A stretch of DNA of 64,000 nucleotides from Candidatus Onthoplasma sp. (GTDB taxonomy: Bacteria > Bacillota > Clostridia > Christensenellales > UBA1242), in assembly GCA_965646995.1 (NCBI GenBank), contig CBFGBH010000002.1, positions 5,977 to 69,976 on the forward strand. Direction: 5' to 3'. Shown in pieces: positions 15,622 to 32,763 of the stretch. The notes beneath the pieces are model-generated. The model saw only the letters and a program-made list of their open reading frames with translations, had not been told where the DNA came from and made no database searches. A program made the position numbers and the translations under genes. The first letter of the stretch is position 1. Each line of letters opens with the position of its first letter.

Positions 15622-16164
15622 ATGCTAATATATATTAAATACTTTATGCAAAATAGAATAAAAAAACTTTCAATAGTGTCAGGAGTATTTTGCTTTTTAT
15701 TAGCAATATTGTTTTTATCATACGCTATATATTTTGGTTTCGATGGTGTACGATTTTTTATAAATCAAGATTTCATTAATTCTGTCGGCAATATTTTAGT
15801 GCTATTTTTCGGTTTGCTATTTATTCCTATGTTTGGGATTATCTTGATTTGTATTTCTATTGTATCTATTTCTTTTTGTATCTCATATTTATCGTCTGGC
15901 ATTAAGCAAATTAGATTGGGTGTCCAAGACCTATTATTAAATACCAAGAATAGATGGATAAAGGGTGTATTTGTATTAGATATATTATTAATTATTTTGT
16001 TTGGATATAGATTTATTATAGGATTAGGTCGACTTATTGTGCATGGTATAAATACAGACTTAATTACATTTATCGTTTTTGGAGCTATTCCGTTTGTTTT
16101 AATAGTACTAAACATAATATTTAATAGATTGTTAGCTAAAGAGATTAAGTTAAAGTCGCACTAG
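15622..16164 (+). CDS. Hypothetical polytopic membrane protein
   Basis: About five hydrophobic segments. No clear RBS, so the start is uncertain. Confidence 0.45.
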   Translation: MLIYIKYFMQNRIKKLSIVSGVFCFLLAILFLSYAIYFGFDGVRFFINQDFINSVGNILVLFFGLLFIPMFGIILICISIVSISFCISYLSSGIKQIRLGVQDLLLNTKNRWIKGVFVLDILLIILFGYRFIIGLGRLIVHGINTDLITFIVFGAIPFVLIVLNIIFNRLLAKEIKLKSH

Positions 16165-26669: not shown

Positions 26670-28274
26670 ATGAACATAGCAAATCTTAGTATGCTATGTG
26701 TGAGTACTCCTGTCGCATGGATTTTATCAATAGTTATGTTAGCAATAGGTATAGGAATAGGTATAGGTGCCGGTGTTGGAGTATACGCTGTTGTTATTAA
26801 TAAAAAATCTAAATCAGCTGGTATAAAGGCGGATAAAATTCTCGAAGAAGCACGCATACAAGCAGAAAAAATCAAGAAAGAACAAGTCGAACAGACAAAT
26901 AAAGAGATTAATCTTTTAAAATCAACATTTGAGCAAGAGAACAAAGAACGCAGAGAAGAGACGAAGCGAAATGAAGAGAGACTTTATTCTCGTGAAGAAC
27001 TTTTAACGAAAAGAGAATCAGCATTAGATAAGAAATTAGAAGACTTAGAAACTGCGAGAGAAAAAGTGCGCAATCAAATCGAAGCACTTAATTCTAAAGA
27101 ATCAGCATTAGATGAACTACAAGAGTCTATTGTAAAAGAGTTAGAAAAAGTCAGTGCAATGTCTAAAGAAGAGGCTAAACAGGTTATCATTGACAGATAT
27201 ACCGAAGAGGCAAAGATAGATGCAATAAAACTAGCTAAAGAAATAGAAGATAAAGCGAAAGAAGAAGCAGACAAAAAAGCAAAGAATATTATTACTCTCG
27301 CTATACAAAAATGTGCTGTTGATAATACTAGTGAAGTTACTACCAGTGTAGTCACTCTGCCTAGTGAAGAGATGAAAGGCAGAATTATCGGACGCGAAGG
27401 AAGAAATATCAGAGCGCTAGAGGCTGCTACTGGTATTGACTTTATAGTAGATGACACTCCAGAAGTGATAACATTGTCTGGATTTGACCCGGTAAGAAGA
27501 GAAGTTGCTCGAATCTCACTAGAAAAATTAATATTAGATGGACGTATTCACCCAGCTAGAATTGAAGAACTAGTACAGAAAGTACAAAGAGATGTCGAGG
27601 ATACTATTAAAGAAGCAGGCGAGAACGCTTGTTTCGATGCAGACATTCACAACATTCATCCGGAAATTGTGAAAGTATTAGGAAGACTAAAATATAGAAC
27701 TAGTTATGGACAGAATGTACTTAACCATTCACTAGAGGTTTCTTATATCGCTGGTATGTTGGCTGCTGAAGTCGGCGCAAACGAAAAAGTAGCTAGGCGA
27801 GCAGGCTTACTACATGATTTAGGTAAAGCTGTAGACCAAGAAGTAGAAGGTACACATGTTTCTATCGGTGTAGACTTAGCTAGAAAATATAAAGAGAGTG
27901 AAGCAGTCATTCATTGTATTGCATCCCATCATAACGATATTGAGCCTAAGACTCTTGAAGCTGTTTTAGTACAAGCGGCAGATGCTATTTCTAGCGCTAG
28001 ACCGGGTGCAAGGCGAGAGTCTATCGAAAATTATATCAAGAGATTGCAAGAATTAGAAGCTATAGCTAATGCCTTTAAAGGTGTCGATAAAACTTATGCT
28101 ATTCAAGCGGGTCGCGAGATTAGAGTTATGGTTAAGCCAGAACAAATCAGTGACGAAGAAGCACAAATTTTAGCTCATGATATCGCTAAAGATATTGAAG
28201 CTAAACTTGAATATCCTGGACACATTAAAGTAAATGTTATTCGAGAGTCTAGATTTACGGATACTGCAAAATAA
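26670..28274 (+). CDS. rny: Ribonuclease Y
   Basis: N-terminal TM helix, coiled coil, KH '[15 protein letters not shown]', HD 'LLHDLGK'. Confidence 0.9.
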
Positions 28275-28386
28275 AAAAGACTAGTTAGTTAGTCCATTTT
28301 GAAACTAGCAGAATAATAAAGGAAACATAGACAAAAACAGCCTATGTTTTCTTTTTGCTCTTAACTCTCTCTTAACTGCAAAAAAA

Positions 28387-28687
28387 GCGAATACTTCTGC
28401 CGTTGTCATAGGTTGTCATAAGAATAACAACCTTAAAAGGTATAAGACACTCGCATTGACCTTGACAACAAAGAATATTCGCTTATACTAGAAAATAGAG
28501 AGAAGAAAACAAAAAGCAAAAGAGCGGTTTGCGTTACGCTCCGCCAGCAACCGCTCTTTTGGCAACAAAATTAAGTTTATTTAGTTTGTTAGGCGTGTGC
28601 TTGTCTGCTGGAGCGAAGCGACAGCACTTGTATAAACAAGCACACGCCTAAATGCCAAAGTTAAAAACTTAATCATTAATTGTTGCT
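28387..28687 (+). ncRNA. Candidate structured RNA / palindrome-rich noncoding segment (family unknown)
   Basis: Three long hairpins: 28387-28481 (7+4+7 bp outer stem with an inner GGTTGT/ACAACC hairpin), 28517-28560 (12-bp perfect stem) and 28561-28687 (rod with a 14-bp perfect core AGGCGTGTGCTTGT/ACAAGCACACGCCT). Locally GC-rich. Confidence 0.3.
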
Positions 28688-28732
28688 TTTATTTTTTAAT
28701 ATTATTATACTATTAATGTAAAGGTGGTATCT

Positions 28733-29176
28733 ATGAAAGAAATAATTGCAGAAAGAGATAAAAGTTTTTTCTTTCTAGTAACTGGTGTAGGATTTATCAG
28801 TATGGTGGCAAGTATTATTGCTTTAATTCTTATTCAAAATTACATATGGTTTTATATTTTTGGAATATCTATGATGAGCTTAATTACACTCGTTGGGGTA
28901 ATTGGTTTATTTTTCCCCAAATGGGTCATTATAAGAAAATCAAACACTATCATTATTTACAATGGATTTCGAAGTTTTAAAAAGATAACATTAAACTTAA
29001 CAGATATTGTTGATGTGAAAGTTCAAGAATTACCACAAGAAAGTAAAGTTAAACATAATGGTAATATAATTTTAACAGTAAAGAGTGAGAGTTCCTCAAC
29101 AAAAAACATTGTTGTTATCAATGTAAAAAGCACTTTAAATGTTGTGGAAAAACTTAACTCATTAATTCAAAAATAA
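28733..29176 (+). CDS. Hypothetical small membrane protein (two N-terminal TM helices plus a beta-rich C-terminal domain)
   Basis: AAAGGTGG RBS before the ATG at 28733. The topology resembles bacterial PH-like (YdbS/T-type) proteins, but I recognised no motif. Confidence 0.5.
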   Translation: MKEIIAERDKSFFFLVTGVGFISMVASIIALILIQNYIWFYIFGISMMSLITLVGVIGLFFPKWVIIRKSNTIIIYNGFRSFKKITLNLTDIVDVKVQELPQESKVKHNGNIILTVKSESSSTKNIVVINVKSTLNVVEKLNSLIQK

Positions 29177-29230
29177 AGTTGAACCTTAAAATCTATTATG
29201 ATTCGATTAAGTTTTAAAGTTGGGTTGATA

Positions 29231-29265
29231 AAAAAACGAACTAAAATTAAGTAGTTCGTTTTTTT
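29231..29265. terminator. Bidirectional rho-independent terminator
   Basis: AACGAACTA/TAGTTCGTT stem flanked by A7 and T7 runs. Confidence 0.8.
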
Positions 29266-29311
29266 GCTAGTTTCAAAATTTACAGCCCTTGGCTAGTCTT
29301 TTTTTTCGTAA

Positions 29312-29815
29312 TTATCCTAATAAATTGTTTATAAATGTCATAATTCTTGATGGCTTGCGTTTGTTTTCAATTTGTCTTTGTGCTTCTTCTTGTTCTTCTT
29401 TTGTACGATTGTAAATTAGAATTGGCTCATTAGTAATTTTGATATAGTTTTCATGTGTTTCATCTTGAAAATAATATTTTACATCAATGTGATTAATAAT
29501 TAAATCTAAATACATCATTCCAGTAAATTTTTTACAAAATTTAGTTAATTGACAGCTGTCTGTTGCTTCACTGCCAAAAAGCTGGATATATGCGGATATG
29601 GCATTTGATAGATCTCTATCATCCTTTAATTCTTGATTAGGATGTACATTAGTTACCGAAATATAATAATAAGCATGTACATCATCTTCTTTTTGTAAAC
29701 CTCTTGTCATAGTTCTAGTCAATAGTCCTAGCGAAACAGATTGAGAATATTCGGCACTCCTAGTCATTTTCTCAAATCTATGTATATTATTTAAAATATA
29801 ATCTTTTTTAATCAT
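29312..29815 (-). CDS. Hypothetical protein (no recognisable motif)
   Basis: I prefer the ATG at 29815 (AGGGGG RBS 5 nt upstream) over the track start at 29848. Confidence 0.5.
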   Translation of the reverse strand: MIKKDYILNNIHRFEKMTRSAEYSQSVSLGLLTRTMTRGLQKEDDVHAYYYISVTNVHPNQELKDDRDLSNAISAYIQLFGSEATDSCQLTKFCKKFTGMMYLDLIINHIDVKYYFQDETHENYIKITNEPILIYNRTKEEQEEAQRQIENKRKPSRIMTFINNLLG

Positions 29816-29902
29816 ATAAACCCCCTTAGTGTTTGCGTAATATATCATATTTATCTTTGATTGTCAATACTTAATTTTAAAATTTTGTTGAAAAGTTGAC
29901 TA

Positions 29903-29930
29903 TTGACAATTATCAAATCCATGATATAAT
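29903..29930 (+). promoter_or_regulatory. Near-consensus sigma-A promoter directly abutting the purA/purZ-like ATG
   Basis: TTGACA, 16-nt spacer, TGATATAAT (extended -10). The ATG at 29937 lies 7 nt after the -10 with no RBS, which implies a leaderless transcript. Confidence 0.55.
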
Positions 29931-29936
29931 ATCATT

Positions 29937-31261
29937 ATGAAATATAGTGGGAAAGTACATGTAGTATACGATGGCATGTGGGGTTCGTGTGGTAAAGGTA
30001 AGATTTGCGGTATGCTGGCGCGAGACACAAAATTAAATATTAAAGTATCTGTTAATAATAATATGCCTAACGCTGGACATACATTTTATTTTGATGATGG
30101 TAGAAAGATTGTAACACATCAGTTACCTATAGGTATAGTTAATCCTGATATTAAATATTTAGTAATTGGCGAGTCGGCAGCAATTAATGTTGATAAGCTA
30201 ATAGAAGAATTAGATAAATATAAAGATTTAATTGGAATATAAAGATTTAATTGGGAACAGACCTATATATATTTGTAATACTGCATGTATAGTTACCGAA
30301 GAGCATATTAAGAGAGAAAAAGCAAGACTTAAGACGGGTAGTACTTTTACTGGCAGTGGAGAGGCGCTTATTGCTAAAATGAGAAGAGAAGGAAACATTG
30401 CAGAAAATGATGAAAGATTACAAGAATTACAAAGACAAGGTATAATTAAAATAGTAAAATCTAAAATTTTCTTTCCGAGTCTATATAATGGAGTTAATGG
30501 TTTTAATGGGGATGAAAATATATTAGTCGAATGCTCGCAAGGGAGACGCATTGAGTCTGAATGGCACTAGTTATCCTTATACAACGTCTAGAGATTGTAC
30601 TCCTGCCCAAGCAATTAAAGATATACACGCTACTGATTACAGCGGAAACATTATTAAATATTGCGTTATCCGACCATATCCAATACGCATAAATAATAGA
30701 CCAAAAAATGACAAAGACGACTATATGTATACGGGAGATTTTTTAGGAGCGAAAGAGATAGATTGGGAGACTATATCTGAACGCAGTGGAGTGCCACTAG
30801 ATGAAATATTAGAAAATGAGCAGTCAACTACCACCCATCAGACTAGAAGAGTGGCAGAGTTTAGTGCTAGACAGTTCAGCGAGATGTTACTTGATACTAA
30901 TCCCGATAAAATAATTATCAATTTCGGTCAATATAATGATGAGGCTCTTAGTGAACTTAATGAAGCAAAAGTAATTGATATAATAAACAATTATAATAAC
31001 GGAGATACTTCATCATATAATCTTGAAATATTGTCTGCTGTAGAAAATTTATATGCTTATATTGGTTTATTTGAGTTGGATTTTCCAATGTCTGAAGGTA
31101 AAATTAGATTAATAGGGACAGGTAGGCTAGAGAGTGAGATAATTAATGTTTCGCATTTACCAGATTTTGAGTTGCCGTACGAATATCAAATACATTGCTT
31201 TAAGCCAAATGCTCTAGACTATGCGATATATGATGAGGCAGACATTAATATTAAATTTTAA
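29937..31261 (+). pseudogene. Adenylosuccinate synthetase-like (PurZ-like/divergent PurA) gene split into three frames
   Basis: Track ORFs 29937-30242, 30232-30570 and 30551-31261 are collinear with PurA. Motifs: 'WGSCGKGK' P-loop, 'NMPNAGHT', 'GSTFTGSGEA', 'ECSQG..LSLNGTSYPYTTSRDCTP', 'TTTHQTRRV'. Frames are broken at 30237 and about 30550. Confidence 0.75.
30218..30255 (+). repeat. 19-bp tandem duplication inside the purA/purZ-like gene
   Basis: ATATAAAGATTTAATTGGA followed by ATATAAAGATTTAATTGGG (18/19 identical). Removing one copy restores the frame ('DKYKDLIGNRPIYICN'). Confidence 0.9.
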
Positions 31262-31290
31262 GAATGAGAGTATCTCATTCTTATTTTATT
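31261..31290 (+). terminator. Rho-independent terminator after the purA/purZ-like gene
   Basis: AGAATGAGA/TCTCATTCT 9-bp stem followed by TATTTTATT. Confidence 0.7.
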
Positions 31291-31291
31291 A

Positions 31292-31324
31292 ATAAAAAAA
31301 TTAACTATAAACATCATAGTTAAT
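31292..31324 (-). terminator. Rho-independent terminator of tRNA-Trp
   Basis: ATTAACTAT/ATAGTTAAT stem followed, on the minus strand, by a T7 run. Confidence 0.7.
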
Positions 31325-31338
31325 TAATAGTAAAATAA

Positions 31339-31413
31339 TGGCAGGGGAGACGCGATTCGAACACGCAACCAATGGTTTTGGAGACCACTACTCTACCATT
31401 GAGCCACTCCCCT
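31339..31413 (-). tRNA. tRNA-Trp (anticodon CCA)
   Basis: Acceptor AGGGGAG/CTCCCCT, anticodon loop CTCCAAA, CCA encoded. Confidence 0.9.
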
Positions 31414-31534
31414 TTAATGTCTAGTATACTCTATACGAAATATTATGTCAATAAATTTGTTGAAATAAATTGTAATAAAGGATATAATAGTTTGAATTTT
31501 ATAGATTTTATGATAGTATTATCATGAGGTAGAT

Positions 31535-32320
31535 ATGATAATTCCAATAATCGAAGAGTGCGATGGGAATGAAGAATACACGTCGGCAAGGCAGTTTGCT
31601 GAACATTTCCCAGATATGTTTAAAAATGTGAATGAAGTGAAACAAAAAGGAATACATAAATGTTACATAATTTTTTATGATTATCCAGAAAATAATAAAT
31701 TTTTATCTAAATTAAAAGTGGTATATAAATTTCATGGAGGATCGGGATTAAGCAATGTATTTGAATATAAGAATTCACTAATAGCTATATCTCCAGTTGG
31801 TGCACCTGTCGCAGCTGGATTGATGGAAGAATTGTCAGTTTTTGGTATTGATGAATTTATTGCACTTGGTTCGGCTGGCTGCTTGGATGAAAAAATATCT
31901 GAAAAATTTGTATTAGTCACTAAAGCTATTCGAGATGAAGGGACCTCGTATCATTATTTAAAGCCAAGTACATATGTTAACACTAGTAAAGATTTGAATC
32001 AAAAATTGATAGAATATTTAAAATCTAATAATATTGATTTCGTAAAATCGATTACATGGACTAACGATGCATTTTATCGTGAAACTAAACAAAAAATTGC
32101 TATGGCAAAAACGCTAGGAGCGGTAGCTGTAGAAATGGAATGTGCTGCGTGGTGTGCTGTAGCGAAATATCGTAAACTAAAATTTTCGCAAATTTTATAT
32201 TTCAGTGATGTGGTAAAACAAGAAGCATGGCAAAGATTGACTTGGAAAAAAGACATGTCGGAAGATATAAAAGATAAAATTATACTAATAGTAAAAGATA
32301 TGATAGATAATAGGGTGTAA
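31535..32320 (+). CDS. Nucleoside phosphorylase family protein (PNP_UDP_1 superfamily)
   Basis: 'GSAGCL', 'RDEGTSYHY' and 'VEMECAA' blocks. GAGG RBS. Confidence 0.7.
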   Translation: MIIPIIEECDGNEEYTSARQFAEHFPDMFKNVNEVKQKGIHKCYIIFYDYPENNKFLSKLKVVYKFHGGSGLSNVFEYKNSLIAISPVGAPVAAGLMEELSVFGIDEFIALGSAGCLDEKISEKFVLVTKAIRDEGTSYHYLKPSTYVNTSKDLNQKLIEYLKSNNIDFVKSITWTNDAFYRETKQKIAMAKTLGAVAVEMECAAWCAVAKYRKLKFSQILYFSDVVKQEAWQRLTWKKDMSEDIKDKIILIVKDMIDNRV

Positions 32321-32322
32321 TT

Positions 32323-32763
32323 ATGAAAAAAGTGACAATATACACTGATGGTGCATGTAGCGGTAATCCTGGAGCAGGGGGCTGGGGAGCGGTACTTTTT
32401 TATAAAGATAGTATGAAAGAAATTAGTGGTTTTGAACCAAATACAACAAACAATCAAATGGAATTAACGGCTGCAATTAAAGCTATAGATAAATTAAAAG
32501 AACCTTGCGAGATAGATTTATATAGCGATAGTGCATATCTTATCAATGCTTTTAATCAGGACTGGATTACAAAATGGCAGATGAATGGTTTTAGAACAGC
32601 AAATAAAAAGCCAATTCAAAATATTGAATTATGGAATACATTAATAGAATTTAATAATATGCACAAGATTAATTGGATAAAAGTGAAAGGGCATGCCGAC
32701 AATAAATTTAACAATCGTTGTGATGAGTTAGCAACGGGCGAGATAGCAAAAAATGCTAAGTAA
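32323..32763 (+). CDS. rnhA: Ribonuclease HI
   Basis: 'IYTDGACSGNPGAGGWG', 'TNNQMELTA' and 'KGHADNKFNNRCDELA'. Confidence 0.9.
   Translation: MKKVTIYTDGACSGNPGAGGWGAVLFYKDSMKEISGFEPNTTNNQMELTAAIKAIDKLKEPCEIDLYSDSAYLINAFNQDWITKWQMNGFRTANKKPIQNIELWNTLIEFNNMHKINWIKVKGHADNKFNNRCDELATGEIAKNAK

Follow-up and report, generated by a model that had tools for sequence, protein, structure and literature searches.

Several mobile elements home to hairpins or terminators, namely IS1397 and ISKpn1, which enter the loops of repetitive extragenic palindromic (REP) sequences, class C group II introns, which insert after terminators, and Tn7, which inserts downstream of glmS. A second kind of element, the mobile insertion cassette (MIC), is defined by inverted repeats, the lack of a transposase, a passenger gene with its own signals, occurrence at different sites and presumed mobilization in trans (PMC3913671). 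A third kind is found among Firmicute integrative mobilizable elements, some of which are documented to pair a serine recombinase with a relaxase that resembles rolling-circle initiators (PMC5704250). Here, we describe a ~1-kb interval (28285-29292) that lies directly behind rny in a 64,000-nt stretch of DNA from Candidatus Onthoplasma sp. (GenBank assembly GCA_965646995.1, contig CBFGBH010000002.1, positions 5,977 to 69,976; we refer to this whole 64-kb stretch as the window). The interval is probably a non-autonomous mobile cassette that was inserted into the loop of the intrinsic terminator between rny and orf178, a convergent 178-aa open reading frame (ORF; 29312-29848, minus strand). A sequence-only reading of the window had offered such an element, with ~15-bp terminal inverted repeats and a terminator loop as its site, as the first of two explanations, and this explanation is supported by the empty sites and the other copies that we report below. 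Like IS1397, ISKpn1, class C introns and Tn7, as these are generally understood, the cassette represents a low-harm insertion at or near an extragenic stem-loop at the 3' end of a gene. Unlike it, they carry the gene for a transposase or intron-encoded protein of their own, and by their descriptions, their sequences and ends are unrelated to those of the cassette.

The interval is enclosed by two nested pairs of inverted repeats. The outer arms (AAAAAAGACTAG and CTAGTCTTTTTT; Table 1) pair at 12/12 positions and are separated by 1,008 nt, and the inner arms (ATTTTGAAACTAGCA, 28296-28310, and TGCTAGTTTCAAAAT, 29265-29279) pair at 15/15 positions, with an extension to 21 nt at 90% pairing. Both pairs are thus found exactly where the sequence-only reading had placed them. 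The left outer arm overlaps the stop codon of rny (TAA, 28272-28274), the right outer arm ends 7 nt from the stop of orf178, and neither outer nor inner arm has a second copy within the window. As a test for chance, we took perfect inverted repeats whose arms lie 200-2000 nt from each other and compared their number in the window with that in 200 dinucleotide-preserving shuffles of it. Repeats of at least 15 nt numbered 4 in the window versus a mean of 0.71 in the shuffles, and nested pairs (both arms at least 12 nt and at most 30 nt apart) numbered 1, the rny-proximal one, versus a mean of 0.01, with any such pair present in 2/200 shuffles. A chance origin of the nested repeat at rny is unlikely.

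The rny locus of related genomes shows the site in its uninterrupted form. Rny is 82-93% identical to proteins of >50 species-level metagenome-assembled genomes (labeled Ca. Onthoplasma, uncultured Christensenella or Clostridia), and we compared the rny 3' region among Ca. Onthoplasma/Christensenellales genomes. Synteny of thiI and rny is kept in 55 loci, the side downstream of rny is variable, and DNA homology ends at the rny stop codon in 80/80 related loci. About 25 of the 32 closest relatives carry one hairpin of the type A-run/stem/loop/stem/T-run at 0-25 nt from the rny stop (for example, TAAAAAAGAGTTGCaatttGCAACTCTTTTTT). In the closest species (L002; Rny 93% identical), rny is followed by a AAAAAAGGGCTacaaacAGCCCTTTTTT hairpin and then by a homologue of orf178 (53% identical), the two stop codons being 24 nt apart. 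The window and its relatives both start with TAAAAAAG after rny, upon which the relatives continue with a complete hairpin and the window contains only the stem halves. An intact terminator with the identical stem, AAAAAGACTAGttgaaCTAGTCTTTTT, was also observed after another gene in a relative of the same genus (L013). The outer arms, which had been proposed to be the halves of a bidirectional rny/orf178 terminator, are indeed the two halves of this host hairpin, and the comparison of rny 3' regions, which had been suggested as a check, indicates an insertion.

The inner arms are the terminal repeats of the element itself. Searching all fetched loci (~2 Mb), we found the inner repeat (TTTTGAAACTAG) bounding segments elsewhere, namely at both ends in locus L128, at the right end in L081 and at one end in L006. 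L128, a gut contig of 3.7 kb, derives from a GC-rich host; in it, an AT-rich insert of 1.8 kb splits a different terminator with the halves AAAAAACGCGC (576-586) and GCGCGTTTTTT (2401-2411). This insert begins right after the stop of a putative aminotransferase-like host ORF (a label from reading only), its ends are TTAAAGTCATAAACTTTTGAAACTAGCG and, reverse-complemented, CTTTAGTCATGGAATTTTGAAACTAGTG, and its internal order is that of the window with an unrelated cargo of 425 aa. L081 is 91% identical to window positions 28590-29306, i.e., from hairpin 2 to end B, and terminates with ACTAGTTTCAAAAT-TTATAGTCCTT, next to which the stem half is a different one, CTATGTG with a T-run. Further on are found the thymidylate-kinase gene tmk (PHROG match), an additional ORF and, as judged by eye, a UvrC-like fragment; they occur neither near rny in any relative nor anywhere in the window. 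In L006, an Onthoplasma relative, AAAAAAGATGAGG-AAGGGTTATCCC-GTTTGAAACTAGTGTAATAATTA directly follows the stop of the homologue of the window gene 32323-32754. Because the inner repeat appears at these three loci with differing outer arms, it is the inner repeat that travels and the outer arm that is specific to the site, and the inner repeat is element-specific. At all four junctions (rny, tmk, the aminotransferase-like ORF and the 32323-32754 homologue), an A-run/T-run stem half adjoins the stop codon. Other terminators, of this genus and of an unrelated GC-rich host, likewise hold related cassettes that have the same ends and other cargo. The cargo of L128 (664-1938, minus strand) has no Pfam match and is, by eye, partly GIY-YIG-like (YFVYKH..GKIYIGVT..).

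The family that targets terminator loops in this way is small. When all 124 hairpin-2 loci were screened for split terminators or inverted repeats on their flanks, the window and L128 alone qualified, and the other candidates were repeated complete terminators or noise. BLAST of end A of L128 against plasmids yielded chance matches only. TTTGAAACTAG-like sites upstream of thiI in L032, L049 and L054 were considered as further ends and rejected as chance matches, since they lie inside coding sequence.

Table 1. Features of the cassette and of the split host terminator (window positions).
Feature	Position	Strand	Remarks
Outer left arm AAAAAAGACTAG	28273..28284		A-run and left half of the stem of the bidirectional host terminator (rny/orf178); overlaps the rny stop
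Left junction TTAGTTAGTCC	28285..28295		Terminator-loop remnant and outermost part of end A; TTAGTC(C)AT common to both L128 ends
End A: ATTTTGAAACTAGCA plus inner extension GAATAATAAAG	28296..28321	+	Pairs 15/15 with 29265-29279
Inward hairpin and T-run AAACATAG..CTATGTTTTCTTTTT	28318..28354	+	Equivalents directly after end A in L128 and L006
Control region	28386..28489	+	Inverted repeat AGCGAATA..TATTCGCT; GTTGTCA at 28402 and 28413, inverted at 28463
Hairpin 1	28517..28561	+	13-bp perfect stem CAAAAGAGCGGTT/AACCGCTCTTTTG, 19-nt loop
Hairpin 2	28575..28660	+	Core arms 28589-28604 and 28636-28651; apex GCGAAGC, then TGCCA
Cargo promoter TTGCTT-17-TATACT	28683..28711	+	AAGGTGG ribosome-binding site ahead of ATG; kept in L082
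Cargo gene ORF147	28733..29176	+	147 aa; N-terminal strand, two transmembrane helices, PH-like domain (predicted)
Bidirectional terminator AAAAAAACGAACTA..TAGTTCGTTTTTTT	29230..29265		14/14 stem, T-run; adjoins end B; conserved in L081 and L084
End B: TGCTAGTTTCAAAAT plus conserved TTACAGCCCTT	29265..29290	-	L081 has ACTAGTTTCAAAATTTATAGTCCTT; related sequence in L128 end B and L006
Outer right arm CTAGTCTTTTTT	29293..29304		Right stem half and T-run of the host terminator

The cassette is self-contained, with an inner terminator at each end, promoters, one cargo gene and an orphan double hairpin. Window and L128 share the order of end A, inward terminator, control/promoter region, hairpins 1 and 2, promoter, cargo, bidirectional terminator and end B, and the hairpin that adjoins end B has an equivalent in L128. 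The ends follow a consensus of roughly RRGYYR-TAAA-T-TTTGAAACTAG, the ~24-nt end being RRGYYRTAAATTTTGAAACTAG. The end extension of window and L128 is CTAG-NNN-AATAAT, and TTTGAAACTAG-NNN-AATAAT recurs at end A of L128 and at L006. The element ends may bear some resemblance to those of IS256-like elements. The inward hairpin is a likely replacement terminator for read-through from rny, and with a terminator just inside each end, rny and orf178 would both still be terminable after their shared hairpin was split. Besides ORF147, the cassette contains no ORF of at least 60 aa, and tblastn with Rep, serine-recombinase and tyrosine-integrase queries gave no match in the window, in line with the earlier statement that a transposase is lacking. 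The other parts that had been listed, i.e., the convergent minus-strand gene, the small membrane-protein ORF, its own terminator and a palindrome-rich stretch (28318-28700), are all present as well. What had escaped that reading is that the palindrome-rich stretch is a member of a widespread Rep-linked motif, that the element has replacement terminators at both ends and that the 4 kb between rny and position 32320 form a variable island.

Within the control region, a promoter-like TTGACA-16-TATACT is found at 28462-28489, and CTTGACAACAA is common to a conserved promoter segment of L117, L009 and L128, which in these loci is followed by a small hairpin with a variable stem. The segment spans ~60 nt (GTTTATGCCGTGAAAGGTGCTTGACAA...CATAAT; L128 2263-2323, L117 905-965, L009 4413-4475), and the stem behind it is locus-specific; in elements bearing the hairpin module, segment and small hairpin may function as a promoter and a small RNA.

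The cargo gene ORF147 has 12 homologues at 39-93% identity. Members of the family were observed after rny (window), beside tmk (L081), in an element with a serine recombinase and a Rep (L082), directly after recA (L084-L089, an arrangement common to many contigs) and amid accessory genes such as those for Fic and acetyltransferase proteins, a distribution that points to a family that travels. The homologue in L082 is 66% identical, has the upstream promoter conserved and lies 3 kb from the hairpin module. An AlphaFold model of ORF147 (13-sequence alignment; pLDDT 80) displays an N-terminal strand, two transmembrane helices, a six-stranded sheet and a C-terminal helix. A fold search against the PDB returned PH or PTB domains as best matches, all of them weak (best E=0.05), in agreement with a weak Pfam match to bPH_2 (E=0.06). 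ORF147 is a predicted membrane protein with two transmembrane helices and a putative PH-like domain. An integron-like cassette array for the ORF147 homologues in L215 and L217 was considered and dropped, as intergenic promoters are present and no obvious attC-like palindromes were seen by eye.

These data also bear on the view that no mobile element is present, in which chance or local terminator duplication around a lineage-specific gene produced the repeats, and the hairpins are the 5' leader of ORF147 or a small RNA. A promoter-like site and a T-run do bracket the hairpins, and across the genus, the sequence behind rny is hypervariable. However, the rarity of nested repeats in the shuffles speaks against this view, as do the same inner repeat bounding other inserts with different outer arms, the conserved promoter that ORF147 has of its own downstream of the hairpins, and the existence of ORF147 homologues without hairpins. 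We consider this view barely credible, and chance or local duplication is effectively excluded.

Compared to the described systems, the cassette is akin to MIC231 of Bacillus cereus, mic-qnrD and mic-qnrS2 and to cargo-carrying miniature inverted-repeat transposable elements, which have inverted repeats of ~20-24 bp, no transposase and a passenger with promoter and terminator. The cassette likewise has terminal inverted repeats, no transposase and a passenger with predicted expression signals. MICs are known from various hosts and sites, and their mobilization is presumed to take place in trans; copies of the cassette were, similarly, found in four contexts. A cognate autonomous element or insertion sequence with the same ends was found neither in the ~2 Mb of loci nor in IMG/VR. 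The cassette differs from MICs in its target, which is the loop of an intrinsic terminator at 4/4 junctions without a clean target duplication, in its terminators, one at each end, and in its orphan hairpin module, which is of a kind linked to Rep genes.

A likeness also exists to cis-mobilizable elements (CIMEs) and decayed Firmicute integrative mobilizable elements (PHA00330/Rep-type; PMC5704250), in that the cassette lacks integration and transfer genes and keeps ends, a probable origin and cargo, and in that its hairpin module and the ORF147 family also occur in the serine-recombinase and Rep element of L082. The interval might then be the relic of a larger integrative mobilizable element with these two enzymes, where an internal deletion took the recombinase and Rep genes and spared the origin-like hairpins, both attachment sites and the final cargo gene. 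In this case, recombination of a palindromic element site with the palindromic terminator would have created hybrid attL/attR sites, now seen as the nested repeats. Elements with a serine recombinase and a Rep-like relaxase are documented (PMC5704250), L082 combines a serine recombinase and a Rep with the hairpin module and, as its last gene and next to host DNA, an ORF147 homologue, and recombination of two palindromic sites would yield exactly the nested geometry. A short direct repeat, T(T)A.AGYCC, can moreover be read in both spacers of the window and in the right spacer of L081. Against such a relic, L128 repeats the compact layout and the ends around a different cargo, so that the small form is itself a recurring unit, and the TTTTGAAACTAG ends are on none of the Rep or recombinase loci in hand, including 33 serine-recombinase loci. 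In addition, the spacers of 11 and 13 nt have no common central dinucleotide as required for serine-integrase sites, and the sub-terminal spacers of L128 are inverted, not direct. The recurring compact form, the absence of these ends from the Rep and recombinase elements and an end geometry unlike that of a serine-integrase site also set the cassette apart from CIMEs. A relic of this type appears rather unlikely to us, and the serine-integrase hybrid-site model was rejected because the spacers are asymmetric.

The two hairpins ahead of the cargo gene belong to a motif that is undescribed and absent from Rfam. The region 28490-28735 folds with z=-6.9 relative to shuffled sequence, and Rfam 15 contained nothing relevant, either for the window (gathering thresholds, E up to 10) or for a canonical member of the motif, L098 (E up to 1). 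When the interval was compared to phage records by BLAST, only hairpin 2 matched, in MT835493 directly downstream of a PF23343 (REP_ORF2-G2P) gene; comparison to plasmids gave no match, and an exact 18-mer of hairpin 2 gave only two chance matches in IMG/VR. A search pattern derived from three copies, GGCGNGTGCTTG-N25-45-CAAGCACNCGCC, retrieved an 84-kb IMG/VR contig, with hairpin 2 again after a Rep-like ORF, and at least 120 gut metagenome contigs with hairpin 2. The motif reads GGCGKGTGCTTG..N33..CAAGCACMCGCC with a GNA apex, CTYGT and then GTGCCA. In 108 distinct hairpin-2 sequences, we found 24 invariant columns, all 24 of which are present in the window. An nhmmer profile that was built without the window sequence recovered 28575-28660 as the sole copy in the window (E=9.6e-20; 66 bits on the plus strand versus 26 bits on the minus strand). 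The outer-stem columns that the search pattern had left free displayed 39, 27, 33 and 32 double compensatory changes. The apical stem occurs with 30 different arms and with the loops GAA (42), GCA (17), GTA (7), GTCA (10) and GTTA (2), i.e., its apex reads GCGNAGC or GCGNNAGC. Hairpin 1 of the family, which precedes hairpin 2, is long and usually has the loop AAGCGGYTYAGCGGC.

A Rep gene was present on the hairpin-1 side in 76 of the 123 other loci, many of the remaining ones being truncated contigs. It is on the same strand in 43 of these (Rep mostly ending 117-152 nt before hairpin 2) and divergent in 33. A serine recombinase occurs in 33 hairpin-2 loci, a count separate from that of the divergent-Rep loci. 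As the window contains no PF23343 Rep, its hairpin copy is an orphan. The ssoA of rolling-circle plasmids, the G4 complementary-strand origin and ssiA of RSF1010 are likewise long imperfect hairpins beside a rolling-circle Rep. A GCGNAGC/GCGNNAGC-type “extraordinarily stable DNA mini-hairpin” is known from the priming sites of phages G4, St-1 and alpha3 and from ssiA of RSF1010, and this apex is common to our motif, G4/St-1 and ssiA (PMC13037366). The motif differs from the described single-strand origins (sso) in that it has no sequence homology to any of them, that the module in the window has no Rep gene nearby and that its role as an origin is a putative one, read from sequence. Given the position beside Rep, the strand asymmetry and the DNA-type apex, the best reading that we can infer for the hairpin module is that of an origin-type site, be it a single-strand origin, a priming site or an origin of transfer (oriT). 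Just upstream of Rep in L090 (23-1777), with equivalents in L093 and L141, we also noted a protein of 580-700 aa, whose N-terminus carries transmembrane helices and which contains a Walker A sequence, GSMGKKKT; it has no Pfam or PHROG match and may be a TcpA-like coupling protein.

The hairpin module could, alternatively, be the means of movement itself. An HUH-type Rep or relaxase would then move the element via single-stranded DNA, with the region of hairpin 2 (CTTGTAT / ATACAAG) as its nick site and extruded terminator hairpins as its targets, and a conventional transposase would be dispensable. CTTGTAT / ATACAAG may resemble the CTTG/ATA nick sites of pC194 and phiX174. The tight linkage of the module to Rep genes, the fit of the apex to the DNA mini-hairpin rule, the choice of hairpins at all four sites and the lack of a clear target duplication are consistent with such a route. 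However, HUH elements such as IS200/IS605 and IS91 are not known to have terminal inverted repeats of this kind, and two further observations, which we list below, are also unfavorable to it: the L006 end without a hairpin module beside it and the lack of a CAAG side stem in hairpin 2 of the window. We regard this route as improbable.

We return to the reading of the interval as a cassette that was mobilized in trans, on which the following mechanism would build. An enzyme encoded elsewhere would recognize the ~24-nt ends and move the cassette in trans, in the manner of a MIC, with a preference for the loop of A-run/stem/T-run hairpins right after stop codons. The double hairpin would act as folded single-stranded DNA and provide a priming or origin-type site (sso, single-strand initiation site ssi, or oriT-like), which a helper Rep or relaxase, when present, would use such that the cassette is copied or transferred. 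In its widest form, which we put forward as a speculation that is rather unlikely to hold, the cassettes would constitute an undescribed class of trans-mobilized elements that home to terminator loops, bring replacement terminators with them and depend for their spread on a Rep-linked single-stranded DNA double hairpin with a GCGNAGC apex, which would itself be a new and widespread origin-type element of gut Firmicute integrative elements.

A number of observations weigh against the cassette reading. The known family consists of one other complete member (L128) and two partial ones, and the L006 end has no hairpin module in the next 1 kb. L128 was retrieved via hairpin 2, which makes the link between ends and hairpin module subject to ascertainment bias. 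No transposase or recombinase gene flanked by the terminal repeat was found in the ~2 Mb of loci, and a scan of IMG/VR with the terminal-repeat pattern gave 26 matches, all of them chance matches in coding sequence. A clean target duplication is lacking, the sequences beside the stems being short imperfect repeats, TTAG/TTGG in the window and TTAAAG/CTAAAG in L128. Nor was an empty allele of the same species found: the only contig of the same strain (L094, exact Rny match) carries the insert, and an exact-protein look-up for orf178 had no match. Hairpin 1 of the window is at the family position and has the loop TGCGTTACGCTCCGCCAGC instead of AAGCGGYTYAGCGGC, a deviation that several AT-rich members also show, hairpin 2 has no CAAG side stem, and the 91% identical copy in L081 has two uncompensated mismatches in the hairpin-2 stem. 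Taken together, the divergent loop, the missing stem and these mismatches suggest that the module in the window may be decaying instead of functional. Last, the promoter-like site at 28462-28489 and a T-run at 28687-28698 would permit a transcript of ~200 nt (28496-28698), in which case the hairpins may act as RNA.

If the cassette reading holds, an odd pair of repeats resolves into a defined mobile unit, a single-gene cassette for which the terminator loop is a safe landing site that would leave both neighbors terminated, and small-genome gut bacteria would have, in terminator loops, a structural target for the gain of genes. The conserved double hairpin, unannotated to date and present on at least 120 gut metagenome contigs with covariation and beside a rolling-circle Rep, is a good candidate for the origin used by a large group of integrative elements. 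Annotations are not to treat the 1-kb interval as a regulatory region or as the 3' untranslated region of rny, and the region from rny to 32320 is to be flagged as a variable island.

This island, 28275-32320 (4 kb, from rny to the gene at 32323), is absent or different in most relatives, seeing that homology stops at the rny stop codon and that in most of them the next conserved gene, the homologue of window 32323-32754, follows 220-860 nt after rny. Besides the 1-kb interval and orf178, it contains a PurZ-like gene in three frames, a tRNA-Trp and a nucleoside phosphorylase gene. The first of these (29937-31261; frames 29937-30242, 30232-30570 and 30551-31261) is homologous to phage-type adenylosuccinate synthetase (phrog_1211, annotated as PurZ type; Pfam Adenylsucc_synt) and looks like a pseudogene of phage origin. 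The tRNA-Trp (31339-31413, minus strand) lies in a hot spot, and L006, L009, L019 and L021 also have a tRNA-Trp there in varied orientations. A larger element integrated at this tRNA-Trp and spanning 28275-31338 was considered; it is a possible background and leaves the repeat-bounded unit unexplained. A perfect 15-nt inverted repeat, TCAAATACATTGCTT (31186-31200/31750-31764), flanks the tRNA-Trp and the start of the nucleoside phosphorylase gene, and further perfect 15-nt inverted repeats of the window are at 15980/16208 and 41197/41520.

Two observations concern the rny 3' end and the cassette in other assemblies. The contigs L094, which ends at the equivalent of window position 28349, and L081, which starts inside hairpin 2, are independent short-read assemblies with breaks inside the cassette; these breaks, which lie at strong hairpins or close to them, could be due to repeat copies or to a loss of coverage at hairpins. 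In L013 (1677-1795), the last ~36 nt of rny with the stop codon (AGCAGATTTAGCGATACTGCTAAGTAATCGATAAAT) are directly duplicated around an insert of ~45 nt, a different kind of rearrangement at the 3' end of rny.

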